This document shows, piece by piece, positions 1,189 through 37,221 of a DNA stretch of 38,555 nt (position 1 is its first letter; the number at the start of each line of letters is the position of its first letter). Location: IMG/VR virus record IMGVR_UViG_2537562091_000004. The stretch is one strand, 5' to 3'. The notes beneath the pieces were generated by a model. It saw only the letters and a list, made by a program, of their open reading frames with translations, was not told the origin of the DNA and made no database searches. The translations under genes and the position numbers were made by a program. This DNA is from a virus. Taxonomy: Duplodnaviria > Heunggongvirae > Uroviricota > Caudoviricetes.

Positions 1189-1364
1189 GGCTGCGGGTGC
1201 TTGAGGCTATCTGTCTCAGGCATGAACACTGAAAGGCAGATAGAGAAAAGCCCCAGTTAACATTTCGCGTCCTGCAAGACGCTTAACATTAATCTGAGGC
1301 CCAATCTATGTCTCACAAATGTAGGTTAGCCTCTTACGTGCCGAAAGGCAAGGGGAAGCAGGCT

Positions 1365-1520
1365 ATGAAGCAGCAAAAGGCGATGTTAATCGCCCTGATC
1401 GTCATCTGTTTAACCGTCATAGTGACGGCACTGGTAACGAGGAAAGACCTCTGCGAGGTACGACTCCGAACCGGCCAGACGGAGGTCGCTGTCTTCACAG
1501 CTTACGAACCTGAGGAGTAA
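1365..1520 (+). CDS. hokD: Hok/Gef-family type I toxin (small membrane peptide), HokD/RelF-like
   Basis: MKQQKAMLIALIVICLTVIVTALVTRKDLCEVRLRTGQTEVAVFTAYEPEE is near-identical to Hok/Gef peptides as I remember them; the ORF-track start at 1308 is an in-frame upstream extension. Confidence 0.8.
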   Translation: MKQQKAMLIALIVICLTVIVTALVTRKDLCEVRLRTGQTEVAVFTAYEPEE

Positions 1521-3017: not shown

Positions 3018-3398
3018 ATGACTGAACGCATAGAATTTGTTTTGCCTTACCCGCCAACGGTGAACACTTACTGGCGTCGTCGTGGCAGCACATATTTTGT
3101 ATCAAAAGCCGGGGAGCGTTATCGCCGGGCAGTGGCGCTTATTGTTCGCCAGCAGCGGCTGAAATTAAGCCTGTCCGGAAGGTTGGCAATAAAAATTATT
3201 GCAGAACCACCGGATAAGCGCCGCCGTGACCTGGACAATATTCTGAAAGCGCCGCTGGATGCGCTGACGCATGCGGGGTTGCTAATGGACGATGAGCAGT
3301 TTGATGAAATCAATATCGTTCGTGCTCAGCCAGTATCTGGTGGACGTCTGGGGGTGAAGATTTACCCCATAATGCTTGAAGGGCAGGTCAAAAAATGA
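3018..3398 (+). CDS. rusA: RusA-family Holliday junction resolvase
   Basis: 126 aa; LPYPPTVNTYWRRRG...DKRRRDLDNILKAPLDALTHAGLLMDD matches RusA motifs including the catalytic RRRDLDN block. Confidence 0.85.
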   Translation: MTERIEFVLPYPPTVNTYWRRRGSTYFVSKAGERYRRAVALIVRQQRLKLSLSGRLAIKIIAEPPDKRRRDLDNILKAPLDALTHAGLLMDDEQFDEINIVRAQPVSGGRLGVKIYPIMLEGQVKK

Positions 3399-4216
3399 AA
3401 CTGGAAGATTTACCGAAATACTACTCCCCAAAATCCCCCGGCCTGACTGATGCATCGGCCTCAACGTCGAAAGATGCGCTGAGTATCACTGATGTGATGG
3501 CCGCGCAGGGCATGACACAGAATCGGGCTGAGATGGGGTTTTCTGCGTTCCTTGGGAAAATGGGCATTAGTATGAATGACAGAGAGCGGGCAACAGAATT
3601 GCTGACAGAATATGCACTCAGTCGGTGTGATCGCGTGGCGGCGTTAAGAAAACTCCCGGCAGAAATAAAACCGGTAGTGATGCGCATTATGGCTTCGTAC
3701 GCTTTTGAGGATTATGCCCGCAGCGCAGCGAGTAAAAAGCAGTGCCCTTGTTGCTATGGGGAAAAATTTATTGAAAGCGTAGTTTTTACAAACAAGGTCC
3801 AGTATCCGGATGGTAAGCCGCCGGTATGGGCAAAGTGTACGAAAGGTGTGTATCCGTCTTACTGGGAAGAATGGAAAAAAGTCAGGGAGGTGGTAAAAGT
3901 TGCCTGTCCGGAGTGTGGCGGAAAGGGTGAGGTTTCCACCGCCTGTAAGGATTGCCGTGGGCGTGGTGTCGCCATTCATCGTGAAGAGTCGGTAAAACGT
4001 GGTATGCCTGTTATCAGAGACTGCCAGCGTTGTGGTGGTCGTGGCTGTGAAAGACTACCATCAACGGAGGCATTTAATGCCATATGCAAAGTGACGAGTG
4101 CTATCACGCTTGATACGTGGAAAAAATCAGTGAAACGCTTTTACGATACGTTGGTGGTTCGGTTTGACATTGAAGAGGCATGGGCGGAGCGGCAGTTAAA
4201 GAGGGTAACGCGATAG
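3395..4216 (+). CDS. Late-gene antiterminator Q (Qin/82-type, zinc-finger containing)
   Basis: 273 aa with CPECGGKG...CKDCRGRG...CQRCGGRG Cys clusters; ATGA overlap with rusA; immediately upstream of a promoter plus short-transcript terminator, as for Q/pR'/tR'. Confidence 0.65.
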   Translation: MKLEDLPKYYSPKSPGLTDASASTSKDALSITDVMAAQGMTQNRAEMGFSAFLGKMGISMNDRERATELLTEYALSRCDRVAALRKLPAEIKPVVMRIMASYAFEDYARSAASKKQCPCCYGEKFIESVVFTNKVQYPDGKPPVWAKCTKGVYPSYWEEWKKVREVVKVACPECGGKGEVSTACKDCRGRGVAIHREESVKRGMPVIRDCQRCGGRGCERLPSTEAFNAICKVTSAITLDTWKKSVKRFYDTLVVRFDIEEAWAERQLKRVTR

Positions 4217-4221
4217 TGTTG

Positions 4222-4249
4222 TTGATTTTTCCCGAATCTGTGGTAAATT
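4222..4249 (+). promoter_or_regulatory. Candidate late promoter pR' (TTGATT-16-TAAATT), probably with the Q-utilisation site
   Basis: Hexamers at 4222-4227 and 4244-4249, just after Q and about 50-75 nt before a strong terminator. Confidence 0.45.
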
Positions 4250-4298
4250 TGCTCTAACGATGGGCGTTTTATGCCTGGCGTTAGAAGATTTTTTACAC

Positions 4299-4320
4299 CC
4301 CGCCGCCTGGCGGGTTTTTT
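4299..4320 (+). terminator. Intrinsic terminator, tR'-like (ends a short 6S-like late leader transcript)
   Basis: cccgcc-gcct-ggcggg hairpin followed by tttttt. Confidence 0.7.
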
Positions 4321-4442: not shown

Positions 4443-4640
4443 ATGCTAAAACAGCAGGATATGACAGAAACCGCCAGAGTAGTGTTTAATGAATTAAGCG
4501 TTACCGAACCGGCGACAGTCGGGGAGATTGCACAGAATACTTACCTTTCACGCGAACGCTGCCAGTTAATACTGACCCAGCTGGTTATGGCGGGTCTGGC
4601 AGACTATCAGTTCGGTTGTTACAGACGCCTTCCGCAGTGA
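4443..4640 (+). CDS. Small hypothetical protein, possible winged-helix DNA-binding fold
   Basis: 65 aa from the internal ATG at 4443 (MLKQQDMTETARVV...TVGEIAQNTYLSRERCQLILTQLVMAGL); first ORF after tR'. Confidence 0.4.
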   Translation: MLKQQDMTETARVVFNELSVTEPATVGEIAQNTYLSRERCQLILTQLVMAGLADYQFGCYRRLPQ

Positions 4641-4651
4641 AGGCTTTTTTA
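4627..4651 (+). terminator. Intrinsic terminator overlapping the stop codon of the small ORF
   Basis: gccttc-cgcagt-gaaggc hairpin followed by ttttttatttg. Confidence 0.55.
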
Positions 4652-4790: not shown

Positions 4791-5840
4791 ATGCTTAATA
4801 CTGTAAAAATATCCAGTTGTGAGTTAATCAACGCCGACTGCCTGGAATTTATCCGGTCGTTACCCGAAAATTCTGTTGACCTGATAGTCACGGACCCGCC
4901 GTACTTTAAAGTGAAGCCTGAGGGCTGGGATAACCAGTGGAAGGGCGACGATGATTACCTGAAGTGGCTGGACCAGTGTCTGGCGCAGTTCTGGCGGGTG
5001 CTGAAACCTGCCGGAAGTCTTTACCTGTTCTGTGGTCATCGCCTGGCATCTGATATCGAAATCATGATGCGTGAACGCTTCAGTGTGCTGAACCATATTA
5101 TCTGGGCGAAGCCGTCCGGACGCTGGAACGGATGCAACAAGGAAAGCCTGCGGGCGTATTTCCCCGCCACAGAGCGCATTCTGTTCGCGGAACATTATCA
5201 GGGGCCGTATCGTCCGAAAGATGCCAGGTATGCGGCGAAGGGCAGTGCACTGAAACAGCATGTGATGGCCCCGCTGATTTCTTACTTTCGTGATGCGCGC
5301 GCGGCCCTGGGGATAACGGCAAAACAGATTGCAGATGCCACAGGAAAGAAAAACATGGTGTCGCACTGGTTCAGTGCCAGTCAGTGGCAGCTACCGAACG
5401 AAAGCGATTATCTGAAATTACAGTCGCTGTTTGCCCGGGTGGCAGAAGAGAAACATCAGCGCGGTGAACTGGAAAAGCCCCACCACCAGCTGGTTGATAC
5501 GTATACGTCACTGAACCGGCAGTATGTGGAGCTGCAGAGTGAATATAAGCATCTGCGGCGGTATTTTGGTGTGACGGCGCAGGTGCCGTACACGGATGTG
5601 TGGACACATAAACCGGTGCAGTTCTATCCCGGGAAACATCCGTGCGAAAAACCGGCAGAAATGCTGCAGCAGATAATCAGCGCAAGCAGTCGTCCGGGTG
5701 ACCTGGTTGCAGATTTTTTTATGGGCTCAGGTTCAACGGTAAAAGCGGCACTGGCGCTCGGGCGTCGTGCGATTGGCGTTGAACTGGAGACCGGACGTTT
5801 TGAGCAGACAGTCAGGGAAGTTCAGGATTTAATCGTTTGA
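4791..5840 (+). CDS. DNA methyltransferase, amino-MTase (N6-adenine or N4-cytosine) with DPPY motif IV and C-terminal FxGxG SAM motif
   Basis: 349 aa; LIVTDPPYF near the N-terminus, DFFMGSGST near the C-terminus (beta-class motif order), with a long insertion between. Confidence 0.85.
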   Translation: MLNTVKISSCELINADCLEFIRSLPENSVDLIVTDPPYFKVKPEGWDNQWKGDDDYLKWLDQCLAQFWRVLKPAGSLYLFCGHRLASDIEIMMRERFSVLNHIIWAKPSGRWNGCNKESLRAYFPATERILFAEHYQGPYRPKDARYAAKGSALKQHVMAPLISYFRDARAALGITAKQIADATGKKNMVSHWFSASQWQLPNESDYLKLQSLFARVAEEKHQRGELEKPHHQLVDTYTSLNRQYVELQSEYKHLRRYFGVTAQVPYTDVWTHKPVQFYPGKHPCEKPAEMLQQIISASSRPGDLVADFFMGSGSTVKAALALGRRAIGVELETGRFEQTVREVQDLIV

Positions 5841-5889
5841 AACGGATGAGATTGCAGAATTAATTACGCACCATTATTATTCTGCTCCC

Positions 5890-5965
5890 GGCCCTTTAGC
5901 TCAGTGGTGAGAGCGAGCGACTCATAATCGCCAGGTCGCTGGTTCAAATCCAGCAAGGGCCACCA
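5890..5965 (+). tRNA. ileZ: tRNA with CAU anticodon (tRNA-Ile2/Met type, like phage ileZ), CCA encoded
   Basis: Cloverleaf folded by hand: acceptor ggccctt/aagggcc, D-arm gctc/gagc, anticodon loop ctCATaa, T-arm ggttcaaatcc. Confidence 0.85.
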
Positions 5966-5972
5966 TCACATA

Positions 5973-6049
5973 CCGCCATTAGCTCATCAGGAAAGAGCGC
6001 CAGCCTTCGAAGCTGGTTGCGCGGAGTTCGGGTCCCCGAAGGCGGTCCA
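5973..6049 (+). tRNA. tRNA-Arg(UCG)-like; imperfect acceptor and T stems, possibly degenerate
   Basis: Anticodon stem ccagc/gctgg with loop ctTCGaa; T-loop ttcgggt; one mismatch each in the acceptor and T stems when folded by hand. Confidence 0.5.
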
Positions 6050-6062
6050 TTATCTGTATCCT

Positions 6063-6139
6063 GCGTTGTTAGCTCAGCCGGACAGAGCAATTGCCTTCTA
6101 AGCAATCGGTCACTGGTTCGAATCCAGTACAACGCGCCA
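6063..6139 (+). tRNA. tRNA-Arg (UCU anticodon), CCA encoded
   Basis: Acceptor gcgttgt/acaacgc, D-arm gctc/gagc, anticodon stem attgc/gcaat with loop ctTCTaa, T-arm actgg-ttcgaat-ccagt. Confidence 0.85.
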
Positions 6140-6154
6140 CACTTATTTTCCCTG

Positions 6155-6178
6155 GCTCGCTTTTGCGGGCTTTTTTTT
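6155..6178 (+). terminator. Intrinsic terminator after the tRNA cluster
   Basis: gctcgc-tttt-gcgggc hairpin followed by tttttttt. Confidence 0.55.
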
Positions 6179-6184
6179 AAATGT

Positions 6185-6397
6185 CTCACAATTCAGGCGG
6201 TTGACTGTTGTCTGGTTTGCGGGGAGTTTGTTAAAAGAAACTGGCATGGTGAATCCCCCTGTGCGGAGGGGCAATCAGCGAGTAGGTATATGGGATAATC
6301 GCGGATTCAGGTGCTGGTACTGAATTCACCGGGAGGCACCCGGCACCATGCAATGGCACATAGCGCCACTCTCCAGCCCCTCTCCGGAGGGGCTTTT
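6185..6397 (+). repeat. Copy 1 of a diverged tandem structured element of about 215-230 bp (candidate sRNA unit) ending in an intrinsic terminator
   Basis: Shares with copy 2: ctcacaattcag, TTGAC box, gcatggtgaatccccctg.gcggaggggc, caccgggaggcacccggcaccatg, and terminator gcccctc-tccg-gaggggc + tttt (6376-6397). Confidence 0.5.
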
Positions 6398-6588
6398 CTG
6401 TGCCGGATACATCACAGTTTCTGGAACCTTAGGTACTACAGTATCAGTCAGGGTGCTATATTTTCAGATGTGATGAAAGCCTGTCAGCAGGCAGGGCGTA
6501 TCGGAAATGACCCAGTAGAGAAAACGTTGACTCAGATACCGGTGCTGAGTTACCGGGAAACCGGCATCACATGACCGCTATCCTTCCA

Positions 6589-6615
6589 GGCCCATCCGCT
6601 CCGGTGGGCCTTTTT
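6589..6615 (+). terminator. Intrinsic terminator between the two repeat copies
   Basis: ggccca(t)ccg-ctc-cggtgggcc hairpin followed by ttttt. Confidence 0.5.
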
Positions 6616-6652
6616 ACTGCAGAAAACAGGTTCCCCGTTAAATGCTATGTTG

Positions 6653-6883
6653 CTCACAATTCAGTAAGTTGACAGTTGCCTGTCAGACTGGGCATTTGTT
6701 AAAAAAATTTCGCATGGTGAATCCCCCTGAGCGGAGGGGCGACTGGTGACGGTATAATCTCTGATTATCAAAACGAGAATGACGCGGGTTTAGTGGCACC
6801 GGGCTGAACTCACCGGGAGGCACCCGGCACCATGTGCATGATGATACAGATACGCGGCTTTAGCCCCTCTCCGGAGGGGCTTT
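6653..6883 (+). repeat. Copy 2 of the tandem structured element (candidate sRNA unit) with an internal TATAAT box and terminal terminator
   Basis: Same conserved blocks as copy 1; perfect TATAAT inside the unit; terminator gcccctc-tccg-gaggggc + ttt at 6863-6883. Confidence 0.5.
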
Positions 6884-6892
6884 CTTATGGAC

Positions 6893-6921
6893 AAAAAAAG
6901 CCCGCGCTGGGAGACGCGGGC
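6893..6921 (-). terminator. Intrinsic terminator readable only on the minus strand (possible end of a small leftward RNA)
   Basis: Minus strand reads gcccgcg-tctcccag-cgcgggc followed by ttttttt; the + strand has an A-run before the hairpin and no T-run after. Confidence 0.5.
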
Positions 6922-7114
6922 GGCAAGGAATAAACAATAAAACGTGAAGTAATATTTCAGCTGGCGAATAATACCCCATAGTAATCACTCTGCGCAACTG
7001 CGCGGTCTTTTTCGAATTGCGGGCTGTAGTCTCCCTTCTGCCATTGTCCTGTAACTTCCGGACTTCAGCCTGCTCCTTATCTGACTCACAACATTATCCC
7101 GCCCGGGAGGATTC

Positions 7115-36637: not shown

Positions 36638-37221
36638 TGGCATTCAGAATGAGTGAACAAGCACGGACCATAAAAATTTATAATCTGCTGGCCGGAACTA
36701 ATGAATTTATTGGTGAAGGTGACGCATATATTCCGCCTCATACAGGTCTGCCAGCAAACAGTACCGATATTGCACCACCAGATATTCCTGCTGGCTTTGT
36801 GGCTGTTTTCAACAGTGATGAGGCATCGTGGCATCTCGTTGAAGACCATCGGGGTAAAACGGTTTATGACGTAGCGTCAGGGGACGAGTTATTTATTTCT
36901 GAACTCGGTCCGTTACCGGAAAATGTTACCTGGTTATCGCCGGAAGGGGAGTTTTAGAAGTGGAACGGCACAGCCTGGGTGAAGGATACGGAAGCAGAAA
37001 AACTGTTCCGGATCCGGGAGGCGGAAGAAACAAAAAACAACCTGATGCAGGTAGCCAGTGAGCATATTGCGCCGCTTCAGGATGCTGCAGATCTGGAAAT
37101 TGCAACGGAGGAAGAAACCTCATTGCTGGAAGCCTGGAAAAAGTATCGGGTATTGCTGAACCGTGTTGATACATCAACTGCACCTGATATTGAGTGGCCT
37201 GTAAATCCTGTCAGGGAGTAA
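36637..37221 (+). pseudogene. tfa: Tail fibre assembly protein Tfa interrupted by an in-frame TAG (36955-36957)
   Basis: ORFs 36637..36957 and 36979..37221 are in the same frame; lambda-Tfa-like sequence is continuous across the stop (…[24 protein letters not shown]…). Confidence 0.75.

Follow-up and report, generated by a model that had tools for sequence, protein, structure and literature searches.

Three probable STnc100-family small RNA genes and a convergent EcOnc08-type gene at the moron site of a lambdoid prophage

Between a tRNA cluster and a sialate-esterase-like gene, the window (the whole stretch of viral DNA that was analysed, 38,555 nt) probably carries three paralogous STnc100-family sRNA genes and a convergent EcOnc08-type gene, located in the moron site of a lambdoid prophage; the three units would belong to the EcOnc05/EcOnc27/sRNA103 group and be distantly related to PasD. 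An earlier note on this DNA had described two diverged copies of a terminator-capped element (6185-6397 and 6653-6883) and had proposed a pair of prophage sRNA genes. The repeats are real, with 79% column identity between the copies, but their family is already known: it is STnc100, a prophage sRNA family found beside Shiga-toxin genes. The Rfam scan suggested at the time places both copies far above the gathering score of 47 of RF02076, over model positions 1-206 in each case (unit 1, 6215-6405, 136.3 bits, E 4e-30; unit 3, 6683-6892, 165.4 bits, E 1.5e-37). Assignment to an sRNA family therefore stands, but the locus is a triple array with an antisense partner and not a pair. The elements of the region are as follows.

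3395-4216: Q (PF03589, Pfam)
4222-4249, plus strand: late promoter pR' (TTGATT-16-TGgTAAATT), just 3' of Q, from sequence reading
4299-4320, plus strand: tR'-like terminator (terminator scan)
5890-6139, plus strand: three tRNA genes (CAT anticodon, ileZ-type; Arg-TCG; Arg-TCT; ARAGORN and Rfam)
6154-6180, plus strand: intrinsic terminator ending the tRNA cluster, GGCTCGCTTTTGCGGGCT followed by T8
6201-6399, plus strand: unit 1 (copy 1), EcOnc05-type STnc100 (Rfam, 136.3 bits)
6454-6616, plus strand: unit 2 ("mid"), diverged STnc100-like (Rfam, 30.1 bits, sub-threshold)
6669-6886, plus strand: unit 3 (copy 2), canonical STnc100 (Rfam, 165.4 bits)
6997-6893, minus strand: EcOnc08-type sRNA gene, convergent to unit 3 (by similarity to EcOnc08)
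7115-8961, plus strand: DUF1737/SASA sialate-esterase-like gene (nanS-p type), the conserved ORF 3' of the moron site (Pfam)

The genetic context that the earlier note had compared with Stx phages was confirmed: an N6/N4 DNA methylase gene lies upstream of the array together with Q, pR'/tR' and the three tRNA genes. The position at the stx site was likewise correct: the same tRNA cluster precedes stx2 in Sakai Sp5 (Sakai Sp4/Sp5 annotation), where stx2AB fills this slot between the tRNAs and a single STnc100 unit. Replacement of stx by the element, on the other hand, is not what the comparison supports, as Stx2 phages carry stx and one such unit immediately downstream. Lysis genes and the esterase gene follow the array; the latter is broken into two frames in the window and has an intact 617-aa counterpart in ML35, and its homologues ECs_1088 and ECs_1207 come after sRNA dyads in Sakai. 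A dyad is found here as well, with the plus-strand units (6201-6886) facing the minus-strand gene (6997-6893) between the tRNAs and the esterase. The "empty" stx slot would hold four sRNA genes, which PGAP leaves without annotation or mislabels as a pseudo-ORF.

The minus-strand gene shares 71 of 73 nt with EcOnc08, an Hfq-CRAC peak of Sakai, and is nearly the same as E2348C_1409.E2348C_1408.IGR, an sRNA from EPEC RIL-seq data. Its predicted parts are given below.

6997-6992 and 6973-6968, minus strand: predicted promoter of the EcOnc08-type gene, TTGCGC-18-TATTAT
about 6961-6893, minus strand: predicted RNA, with terminator GCCCGCGTCTCCCAGCGCGGGC (6921-6900) followed by U7 (terminator scan)

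The three plus-strand units were resolved into predicted promoters, helices, linkers and terminators.

6208-6213 and 6232-6237, plus strand: predicted promoter of unit 1, -35 TTGTCT and -10 TAAAAG
about 6244-6399, plus strand: predicted RNA of unit 1
6244-6251/6344-6351 and 6256-6260/6267-6271: P1 and P2 of unit 1
6274-6279/6313-6318: pseudoknot of unit 1
6303-6310/6320-6327 and 6329-6333/6339-6343: P4 and P5 of unit 1
6352-6374 and 6375-6394: variable linker and terminator of unit 1, the latter followed by UUUUCU
6454-6462, plus strand: predicted extended -10 of unit 2, TGcTATATT
about 6468-6616, plus strand: predicted RNA of unit 2
6468-6475/6565-6572 and 6479-6483/6488-6492: P1 and P2 of unit 2
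6499-6504/6539-6544: pseudoknot of unit 2
6528-6535/6545-6552 and 6553-6556/6561-6564: P4 and P5 (GAAA loop) of unit 2
6573-6587 and 6588-6611: linker and terminator of unit 2, the latter followed by U5
6676-6681 and 6700-6705, plus strand: predicted promoter of unit 3, -35 TTGCCT and -10 TAAAAA
about 6711-6886, plus strand: predicted RNA of unit 3
6711-6719/6828-6836 and 6724-6728/6735-6739: P1 and P2 of unit 3
6743-6748/6797-6802: pseudoknot of unit 3
6786-6794/6803-6811 and 6813-6817/6823-6827: P4 and P5 of unit 3
6837-6861 and 6862-6881: linker and terminator of unit 3, the latter followed by UUUCUU

Folded independently, the three units adopt the same architecture and all 15 helices pair perfectly; the STnc100 consensus fold (P1, P2, P4, P5 and terminator) is present in each. 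The blocks GCATGGTGAATCCCCCTG.GCGGAGGGGC and CACCGGGAGGCACCCGGCACCATG are identical in both copies, and units 1 and 3 share the same 22-nt terminator AGCCCCTCTCCGGAGGGGCTTT, an identity that the earlier note had already pointed out. The complementarity between CATGGTG and CACCATG corresponds to the closing helix P1, and CCGGG/CCCGG to hairpin P5. The 3' strand of P2 can also pair with the 5' strand of the terminator, but this is confined to the E. coli units, owing to the likeness of their terminator to P2. Each unit has a different linker, predicted to be unpaired with a probability of 0.64, 0.98 and 0.88 in units 1, 2 and 3, and the 3' parts of the family as a whole are hypervariable.

Selection on RNA structure, which the earlier note had argued from the two copies and had proposed to examine by covariation across homologues, is borne out by helices that covary across genera. 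Among Enterobacterales, 90.5% of the core cells are paired compared with 77.6% in shuffled data (0/500), and the value drops to 42-49% when the partners are slid. Both-side changes occur at 17 pairs in 33 diverse sequences, and P1 is found as 70 distinct helices across genera. Sequence conservation is concentrated in junctions and loops (AAU in J1/2, the P2 loop, GCG before P4 and AGGCA in the P5 loop), while the stems covary from Pantoea to Escherichia. The pseudoknot was assessed by permutation of cognate against non-cognate strands, the column-wise count on a MAFFT alignment being unsuitable as the strands shift register between sequences; cognate strands form 6.2 bp on average and non-cognate strands 4.7 bp (0/5000 permutations), in 98 distinct pairings. 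The pseudoknot is absent from the consensus line of RF02076, and its covariation is a new detail beyond the Rfam consensus structure for STnc100.

The TTGAC box of the earlier note is present in both copies (6201-6206 and 6669-6674) but is not conserved in other family members, and the conserved -35-like hexamer lies 7 nt downstream of it. As a -35 element the box would stand 24 nt from the A-rich -10, and other variants do not conserve it; we prefer the TTGyCT hexamers (TTGTCT, TTGCCT), which lie 18 nt before TAAAAG/TAAAAA. A generic sigma-70 scan picked neither of these -35 candidates, because the -10 sequences (TAAAAG/TAAAAA) do not end in T. The promoter geometry is kept across genera, and the +1 falls at P1.

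The mid unit, with 30.1 bits and an E-value of 2.4e-4, stays below the gathering score of 47, and the mid-type unit of another locus (L068) reaches a similar 30.0 bits on STnc100. Its independent minimum free energy fold gives the same architecture (z = -3.05), and every helix is retained through compensatory changes. On this modelled structure the mid unit is a structural homologue and sub-threshold member of STnc100, as is PasD1 with 37.7 bits; both the promoter and the expression of the mid unit are predicted. It was found, in two variants, in 673 of 5426 complete E. coli genomes and is always flanked by canonical units. A sequence search of the Sakai and E2348/69 loci returned no counterpart.

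Evidence for transcripts comes from identical or homologous loci, where the RNAs are transcribed in lysogens and crosslink to or co-purify with Hfq. Over 218 nt, unit 1 has the same sequence as the EcOnc05 locus of Sakai Sp4 (1179709-1179926; 100% identity); the EcOnc05 Northern probe matches exactly at 6273-6307 and the EcOnc06 probe with one mismatch, and the Hfq crosslink peak of Sakai EcOnc05 covers the core. Unit 3 shows 84.5% identity, across promoter and core, with the EcOnc27/sRNA103 unit just 3' of stx2B in Sakai Sp5. EcOnc05, EcOnc06, EcOnc13 and EcOnc27 are all listed as Hfq-CRAC peaks, and their Northern bands measure 177-247 nt (Tree et al., 2014, Table S2). The bands of EcOnc05 (about 222 nt) and EcOnc27 (about 235/247 nt) exceed the predicted P1-to-terminator length of 156-176 nt, so that the 5' end may lie upstream, or read-through species may exist. 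The STnc100 copies of EDL933 are transcribed, one of them (STnc100_4) is Northern-positive and some carry ribosome footprints. Effects of sRNA103 on fimZ and espA have been published without a mechanism, and canonical STnc100 members are not known to have a validated target. Sequence variants of the stx2-adjacent STnc100 copy have been statistically linked to HUS outcome.

Taken together with the fold, each unit is most likely an autonomous Hfq-associated sRNA gene that combines a conserved structured 5' domain with a variable, accessible seed linker and a terminator. A sigma-70-type promoter would set the start at the first base pair of P1. In the 5' domain of about 110-125 nt, P1 would close a junction with P2, P4 and P5, and the strand 3' of P2 would pair with the P4 loop in the pseudoknot; a unit-specific single-stranded linker of 15-25 nt and the intrinsic terminator would follow. 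The array would thereby yield three sRNAs with a common structured body and different linkers, and since these presumed seeds differ, the units should address different targets by Hfq-assisted base pairing.

Among the closest known systems, the STnc100 RNAs, including EHEC EcOnc05 and EcOnc06 (Tree et al., 2014), agree with the present units in prophage position and probably also in Hfq association and size class; however, three units stand in tandem here, whereas the 11 STnc100 copies of EDL933 all lie at distances above 27 kb from each other by published coordinates. EcOnc27/sRNA103 occupies the same slot between moron and esterase and is also paired with a convergent sRNA, but it has a different 3' linker and terminator module, its partner is AsxR instead of an EcOnc08-type gene, and no toxin genes lie upstream of the present array. 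PasD1/PasD2 of EPEC E2348/69 (EcOnc13) have a homologous fold with the same P1 sequence GCAUGGUG, P2 and P4, a promoter of the type TTGACT-N17/18-TTAAAA with +1 at P1, and a seed just 5' of the terminator, and like the array they adjoin Q, esterase and lysis genes. They are supported by Northern blot and RIL-seq, and their 5' end is at GCAUGGUG. Chimeras of PasD with numerous mRNAs fall in its 3' ~50 nt and involve the stretch just 5' of the terminator (seed UGUGAG); pasD levels are little changed in an hfq mutant (DESeq table). PasD differs from the units in scoring only 37.7 bits on STnc100, in lacking hairpin P5 and in having a distinct 3' module, which contains the UGUGAG seed; neither its probe nor its seed region could be matched to the window, and BLAST similarity is limited to the promoter/P1/P2 block. 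Adjacent paralogous sRNA genes with their own promoter and terminator are also known from OmrA/OmrB, PrrF1/PrrF2 and Qrr1-5, where the seed is conserved, whereas here the structured 5' domain is conserved and the putative seed differs. Lambda 6S RNA/StxS is likewise short and terminated and stems from the late region of lambdoid/Stx phages, and StxS binds Hfq; it arises, however, from pR' (4222-4320 here, 2 kb upstream), while each STnc100 unit would be transcribed from a promoter of its own and is structurally unrelated to it.

Conservation in this family is inverted compared with ordinary sRNAs, as the structured body is kept and the presumed seed is hypervariable, and the short U-tracts (UUUUCU, UUUCUU) are atypical of a strong Hfq 3' module. 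In other genera, about 44% of the cores are followed by ORFs or tRNAs and lack a terminator nearby; such terminator-less cores stand ahead of KdgM-family porin genes in many genera, and also of MarR, lipoprotein and tRNA genes. Inverted conservation and terminator-less cores together suggest that the 5' domain serves a separate function beyond seed pairing. We tentatively consider it possible that the conserved pseudoknotted domain is not a mere seed scaffold but an autonomous functional RNA module, such as a sensor, a protein decoy or a 5' stabiliser, which would have become widespread in Enterobacterales and been joined time and again to different payloads, namely seed plus terminator, tRNAs, KdgM-type porin genes and other mRNAs. 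If so, arrays would supply several RNAs that differ in their targets but obey a common control logic, and the mid unit would have founded a sub-threshold subfamily that about 12% of complete E. coli genomes carry. A tRNA linkage was discarded as a defining association, a same-strand tRNA being near only 18 of 141 cores.

The stronger version, in which the 5' domain itself is the functional ligand- or protein-binding element (riboswitch-like sensor, decoy or 5' stabiliser), the 3' payloads (seed plus terminator, tRNA or mRNA) are interchangeable and the arrays are tandem sensors, appears unlikely to us. It would account for conserved junctions and loops over covarying stems, for the aptamer-like pseudoknotted core, for the hypervariable 3' parts and terminator-less cores just described, and for an EcOnc05 crosslink peak that spans the core. 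However, no conserved expression platform was found, no ligand candidate emerged, the P2/P5 motifs were partly picked by the search pattern, and the "invariant" loops are altered in the mid and PasD types despite a retained fold (GAAA for AGGCA; PasD without P5). A riboswitch-type anti-terminator is disfavoured because the terminators of other genera are unrelated, leaving no conserved platform.

It is also improbable that the units act mainly in cis, as a terminator stack that insulates the lysis genes from upstream moron transcription (tRNAs, methylase, toxin genes) in the lysogen, is overridden by Q-modified polymerase only and releases short RNAs as by-products. Four plus-strand terminators do follow one another from the tRNAs to the esterase, the terminator scan found an overall excess of terminator-like sites (14 observed against 3.0 +/- 1.5 expected), units 1 and 3 have an identical terminator, and at least eight Sakai prophages keep this position between pR' and the lysis genes. 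A terminator alone, however, needs neither a covarying pseudoknotted domain of about 110 nt nor its own promoter; the RNAs of identical or homologous loci accumulate, bind Hfq and form chimeras with mRNAs; and many family members in other genera have no terminator. As a secondary role, insulation is compatible with the sRNA reading: the unit terminators and the tRNA terminator may halt transcription that is not Q-modified before the lysis genes, and Q-modified polymerase from pR' would read through them.

The earlier note had also mentioned the prophage-encoded anti-sRNAs of EHEC, and that the units are such AgvB/AsxR-type sponges of core sRNAs (GcvB, FnrS) is very improbable. Anti-sRNAs do occur at the same genomic site, were described in the same paper and are encoded in the same dyads; AgvB and AsxR are likewise Hfq-bound, in moron-site dyads of lambdoid prophages, as the short convergent partners of STnc100-type RNAs (Tree et al., 2014). 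But they are 51-60 nt long, lie on the opposite strand, convergent to the late operon, have an unrelated sequence with a conserved 3' region of ~42 nt (…GUAUCUCAUGC..UUGCCCGAACCCACUCGGGCUUUU) and sponge GcvB/FnrS, whereas the units would give sense-strand RNAs of about 150-180 nt and belong to RF02076. The variable linkers might nevertheless act as sponges. Neither RF02702 nor RF02703 (AgvB/AsxR) matched in 5800-7200 at E <= 10, nor in the whole window at the gathering score, and the probes or sequences of AsxR, EcOnc03, EcOnc27 and PasD are without a match in the window. Esr41 (RF02676) and IsrK had no Rfam match in 5800-7200 at E <= 10; a weak Esr41 match (32 bits) was seen near PasD1, in E2348/69 only.

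That the repeats are a degraded protein-coding gene or small-peptide genes is scarcely credible: units 1 and 3 do contain short ORFs that open with ATG (the ATG of P1 would give MVNPPVRRGNQRV, for example), the PGAP annotation of ML35 has a partial pseudo "hypothetical protein" across unit 1 and some EDL933 copies have ribosome footprints, but the ORFs 6017-6295, 6311-6571 and 5944-6186 (minus strand) have no Pfam match, the ATG is not conserved (P1 elsewhere reads GUGGUG, GCGGUG, GAUG and so on), substitutions in the conserved block are not codon-like, falling at would-be positions 1 and 2 with third positions invariant, the mid unit reads ATG-TGA, and compensatory pair changes are a signature of selection at the RNA level.

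Enterobacterial genomes contain few annotated sRNAs as abundant as the STnc100 type, of which one copy lies directly beside stx2. The pseudoknot, the promoter-to-P1 geometry, the accessible hypervariable linker, the tandem arrays and the sub-threshold subfamily offer handles for experimenters, and the Rfam model could be widened so that it covers the pseudoknot as well as the mid and PasD types. Arrays recur in 14 plus 11 of 80 esterase-anchored phage loci and, in E. coli, in 353 and 673 of 5426 complete genomes; tandem arrays are also found in Superficieibacter and Pantoea. Recombination between units most likely gave rise to the array and reshuffles it. Sakai Sp4 corresponds to the present locus minus the mid unit and unit 3, with the junction at the shared identical terminator.

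The two canonical copies of the element in the window, unit 1 (6201-6399, plus strand) and unit 3 (6669-6886, plus strand), are alike far above chance. Where the earlier note had placed them, pairwise alignment of 6150-6420 with 6620-6910 gave 79% column identity, and the conserved blocks GCATGGTGAATCCCCCTG.GCGGAGGGGC and (C)TCACCGGGAGGCACCCGGCACCATG as well as the common 22-nt terminator AGCCCCTCTCCGGAGGGGCTTT are identical in both, as it had claimed. The Rfam scan that it had proposed, run on the whole window, assigned both copies to RF02076 (STnc100), unit 1 with 136.3 bits (6215-6405) and unit 3 with 165.4 bits (6683-6892), well above the gathering score of 47 bits. The feature is real, its interpretation as prophage sRNA genes is correct, and it is of a known kind, the STnc100 family being already curated and experimentally detected. 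Beyond this, our work contributes details that are useful though incremental: the array as a triple, one member of it sub-threshold, its convergent partner, the pseudoknot and the promoter geometry.

The description as a pair holds for the canonical copies but not for the number of units, since a third one, missed in the earlier note, lies between them. In a permissive Rfam scan, 6444-6617 matched STnc100 weakly (30.1 bits, E 2.4e-4), below threshold, and this mid unit, folded alone, has the architecture of units 1 and 3 (z = -3.05). Its base pairs differ from theirs in every helix, the fold being kept by compensatory changes: the closing helix P1 is AUGUGAUG/CAUCACAU versus GCAUGGUG/CACCAUGC in the other units, P2 is GCCUG/CAGGC versus CCCCU/AGGGG, P4 is UGACUCAG/CUGAGUUA, and P5, CCGG/CCGG, has a GAAA loop. 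A predicted extended -10 at 6454-6462 (TGcTATATT) and a terminator at 6588-6611, followed by U5, belong to the mid unit itself. A conserved element of its own, it is carried by 673 of the 5426 complete E. coli genomes, where one variant has about 100% and the other 90.6% identity; the Sakai and E2348/69 loci examined hold no counterpart. In two phage contigs (L008, 2063-3539; L036, 1310-3161) it breaks off after 141 nt, and the next unit follows only beyond ~1.3-1.7 kb of inserted DNA, perhaps an IS element or a further moron.

The setting given in the earlier note, with Q, late promoter, methyltransferase and three tRNAs, is present in full, here listed with neighbouring features:

3395-4213, antiterminator Q (PF03589)
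4222-4249, plus strand, lambda-like pR' (sequence motif TTGATT-16-TGgTAAATT, extended -10)
4299-4320, plus strand, tR'-like terminator, ~50 nt past pR'
4627-4644, plus strand, second terminator, after a 94-aa ORF
4791-5837, N6/N4 DNA methylase
5890-6139, three tRNAs (ARAGORN)
6454-6616, plus strand, mid unit (diverged STnc100-like)
6893-6997, minus strand, EcOnc08-type convergent sRNA gene (promoter, terminator and sequence identity)
downstream of the array, DUF1737/SASA esterase, DUF1327 protein and lysozyme

The array occupies the stx slot, as had been proposed, because Sakai prophage Sp5 (Q, ileZ-argN-argO, stx2A-stx2B, sRNA pair, esterase) carries stx2A-stx2B between the same tRNAs and an sRNA pair, which the esterase follows.

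The fold was followed in two unbiased samples, 80 IMG/VR loci with the downstream esterase as anchor and species-representative genomes scanned with a P2-only pattern, which matched in many Enterobacterales genera, among them Salmonella, Klebsiella, Enterobacter, Kosakonia, Pantoea, Erwinia, Rahnella, Leclercia and Citrobacter. Among 141 distinct cores (5' domains), P1 took the form of 70 different helices of 6-9 bp, and P5 showed compensatory variants with its AGGCA loop invariant. On a 33-sequence alignment of P1, P2, P4 and P5, standard pairs filled 90.5% of cells versus 77.6% in shuffles (0/500) and only 42-49% with slid partners; 17 pairs had changed on both sides versus 11.3 in the control, and the covariation score was 0.402 versus 0.160. 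The stems thus covary, which bears out the suggested selection on structure. Moreover, the strand just 3' of P2 pairs with the P4 loop in a pseudoknot of kissing-loop-like geometry (2 nt, 6 bp and 1 nt in the 9-nt loop). Its helix averaged 6.2 bp for cognate partners, 4.7 bp for non-cognate ones and 4.4 bp for shuffled loops, the observed mean being reached in 0/5000 permutations; 89% of cores form at least 5 bp, with 98 distinct strand pairs. All three window units possess it (6274-6279/6313-6318, 6499-6504/6539-6544, 6743-6748/6797-6802). The consensus structure line of the RF02076 model lacks it, and the 2026 preprint (Zhu, Shabalina and Storz, bioRxiv 2026) makes no mention of it. We regard the RNA identity and fold of the units as demonstrated.

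The tandem arrangement is a recurrent trait of the family. The exact arrangement of the window precedes the esterase in 14 of the 80 phage loci, and another 11 hold a diverged triple (73% unit, mid unit 91%, 92% unit, both outer identities measured against unit 1); at least 80% of 6140-6960 is held by 353 complete E. coli genomes. Arrays are also found in other genera and are therefore not E. coli-specific: Superficieibacter has three consecutive gathering-score matches and Candidatus Pantoea communis four, and Leclercia and E. albertii have doublets. The arrays from Superficieibacter and Candidatus Pantoea communis, and one from a further genome, consist of 3-4 STnc100 units spaced ~166-260 nt:

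L112, 6323-7018, minus strand
L135, 6350-7858, minus strand
L201, 223-798, plus strand

We found no description of the tandem arrangement in the cited STnc100/Pas literature; Pas copies are stated to lie distally rather than in tandem (Zhu, Shabalina and Storz, bioRxiv 2026), and none of the 11 transcribed STnc100 copies of EDL933, one of them Northern-positive, adjoins another (Neuhaus et al. 2017). RefSeq/PGAP annotates no ncRNA across the whole array in the ML35 prophage locus (L002), and calls a partial pseudo 'hypothetical protein' over the unit 1 region (8095-8220 = window ~6234-6359, minus strand), probably a spurious call on a conserved RNA gene.

Several units correspond to known RNAs. 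Hfq-crosslinked sRNAs were mapped in EHEC Sakai, where at least 8 prophages carry convergent sRNA pairs, flanked by the moron that follows pR' and by a conserved phage ORF (Tree et al. 2014, PMC4104026). The reverse complement of the EcOnc05 Northern probe matches exactly at 6273-6307, the EcOnc06 probe with 1 mismatch, and 218 nt of unit 1 (6179-6396) are 100% identical to the Sakai Sp4 EcOnc05 locus, which equals the window locus minus the mid unit and unit 3, with the junction at the common terminator. EcOnc27 (= sRNA103, after stx2B) shares 84.5% identity with unit 3 in promoter and core, whereas the 3' modules differ; STnc100 has been placed 75-90 nt past stx2B (Paganini et al. 2025; Michelacci-group work). 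EPEC PasD1 and PasD2 were described as structural homologues of STnc100 (Zhu, Shabalina and Storz, bioRxiv 2026), which we confirm for PasD1 (37.7 bits against the STnc100 model). The convergent RNA after unit 3 is bounded by a predicted promoter at 6997-6968 (TTGCGC-18-TATTAT) and a strong terminator at 6921-6900, followed by U7. It matches the Sakai Hfq-CRAC peak EcOnc08 at 71/73 positions, and the EPEC RIL-seq sRNA E2348C_1409.E2348C_1408.IGR is almost the same in sequence. For EcOnc08/21 a ~271-nt band was reported (Tree et al. 2014, PMC4104026); such an RNA would begin antisense to the 5' end of the esterase gene. A terminator-like hairpin (CTGCGCAACTGCGCGG + TCTTTTT, 6990-7005, plus strand) lies just upstream of that gene, overlapping the -35 region of the minus-strand promoter.

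The TTGAC box, noted earlier as a shared feature, was rejected as a promoter element, as it is not conserved in other family members; the conserved -35-like hexamer (TTGyCT/TTGATT/TTGACT) lies elsewhere, 18 nt upstream of TAAAAA/G. Across genera the -10-like TAnnnT/TAAAAA is most frequent 16-19 nt before the TGAATCC anchor, so that +1 falls on the first base of P1, in agreement with the mapped PasD 5' end (for PasD1, the G of GCAUGGUG). The predicted transcripts of units 1, mid and 3 (156, 149 and 176 nt) consist of 5' domain, accessible linker (P(unpaired) 0.64, 0.98 and 0.88 in predicted folds) and terminator; EcOnc05 and EcOnc27 are longer on Northern blots (222-247 nt) than predicted, and the 5' ends may therefore lie farther upstream. 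The linkers are unit-specific (AAUGGCACAUAGCGCCACUCUCC, GACCGCUAUCCUUCC, CAUGAUGAUACAGAUACGCGGCUUU) and stand where PasD has its seed and RIL-seq chimeras map. From this we infer expression, start sites and seed function of the array, which most likely encodes three autonomous, Hfq-associated, trans-acting sRNAs that would share a body and differ in address. On this reading the unit terminators also help to bar non-Q transcription from the lysis genes. We found no validated target for any canonical STnc100 member in the literature. CTCACA(ATTCAG) precedes both canonical units (6185-6190 and 6653-6658, plus strand), CUCACA being the motif that the PasD seed (UGUGAG) is reported to target. As both sites precede the predicted promoters, they would be transcribed only in read-through RNA, and the match may be a coincidence.

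Conservation is reversed relative to a typical sRNA, the body being conserved and the presumed seed hypervariable. In representative genomes a terminator follows within ~110 nt in only 70 of 126 cores; since the others precede tRNAs or ORFs, this hints at the 5' domain as a portable functional module. Thirteen cores lie upstream of a KdgM-family porin (PF06178, 248 bits), others before MarR, TolA-C lipoprotein, LD-carboxypeptidase, flagellin or tRNA genes. The following loci, from Kosakonia, Enterobacter, Klebsiella and others, have the core 80-220 nt upstream of the porin with no obvious terminator between, possibly as a chromosomal leader or upstream sRNA:

L090, L100, L102, L104, L107, L114
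L117, L142, L158, L187, L194, L196

A riboswitch-like reading of the 5' domain remains a minority hypothesis, because no conserved expression platform was found and the 'invariant' loops are changed in the mid and PasD types. The EHEC anti-sRNAs to which the earlier note alluded, AgvB/AsxR, are a different, short, opposite-strand class, absent from the window by Rfam scan and sequence matching.

Elsewhere in the window, pR' with the tR'-type terminator (4222-4320, plus strand) predicts a short StxS/6S-like late leader RNA. The first tRNA (5890-5965, plus strand) is Met (CAT) by ARAGORN; its orthologues in Sakai and in the array-bearing strain ML35 are annotated tRNA-Ile (ileZ), the CAT anticodon being lysidine-modified. 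The nanS-p-type esterase (7115-8961, plus strand) is interrupted, with one frame at 7115-8056 overlapping a second at 7801-8961, and likely represents a frameshift or pseudogene, since the ML35 prophage, otherwise identical, has a single intact 617-aa gene. Two further Rfam matches exceeded threshold, sok antitoxin RNA (120.5 bits, 1195-1370, plus strand) beside a hok-like ORF (1308-1520), and IS009 (224.5 bits, 36980-37178, plus strand).
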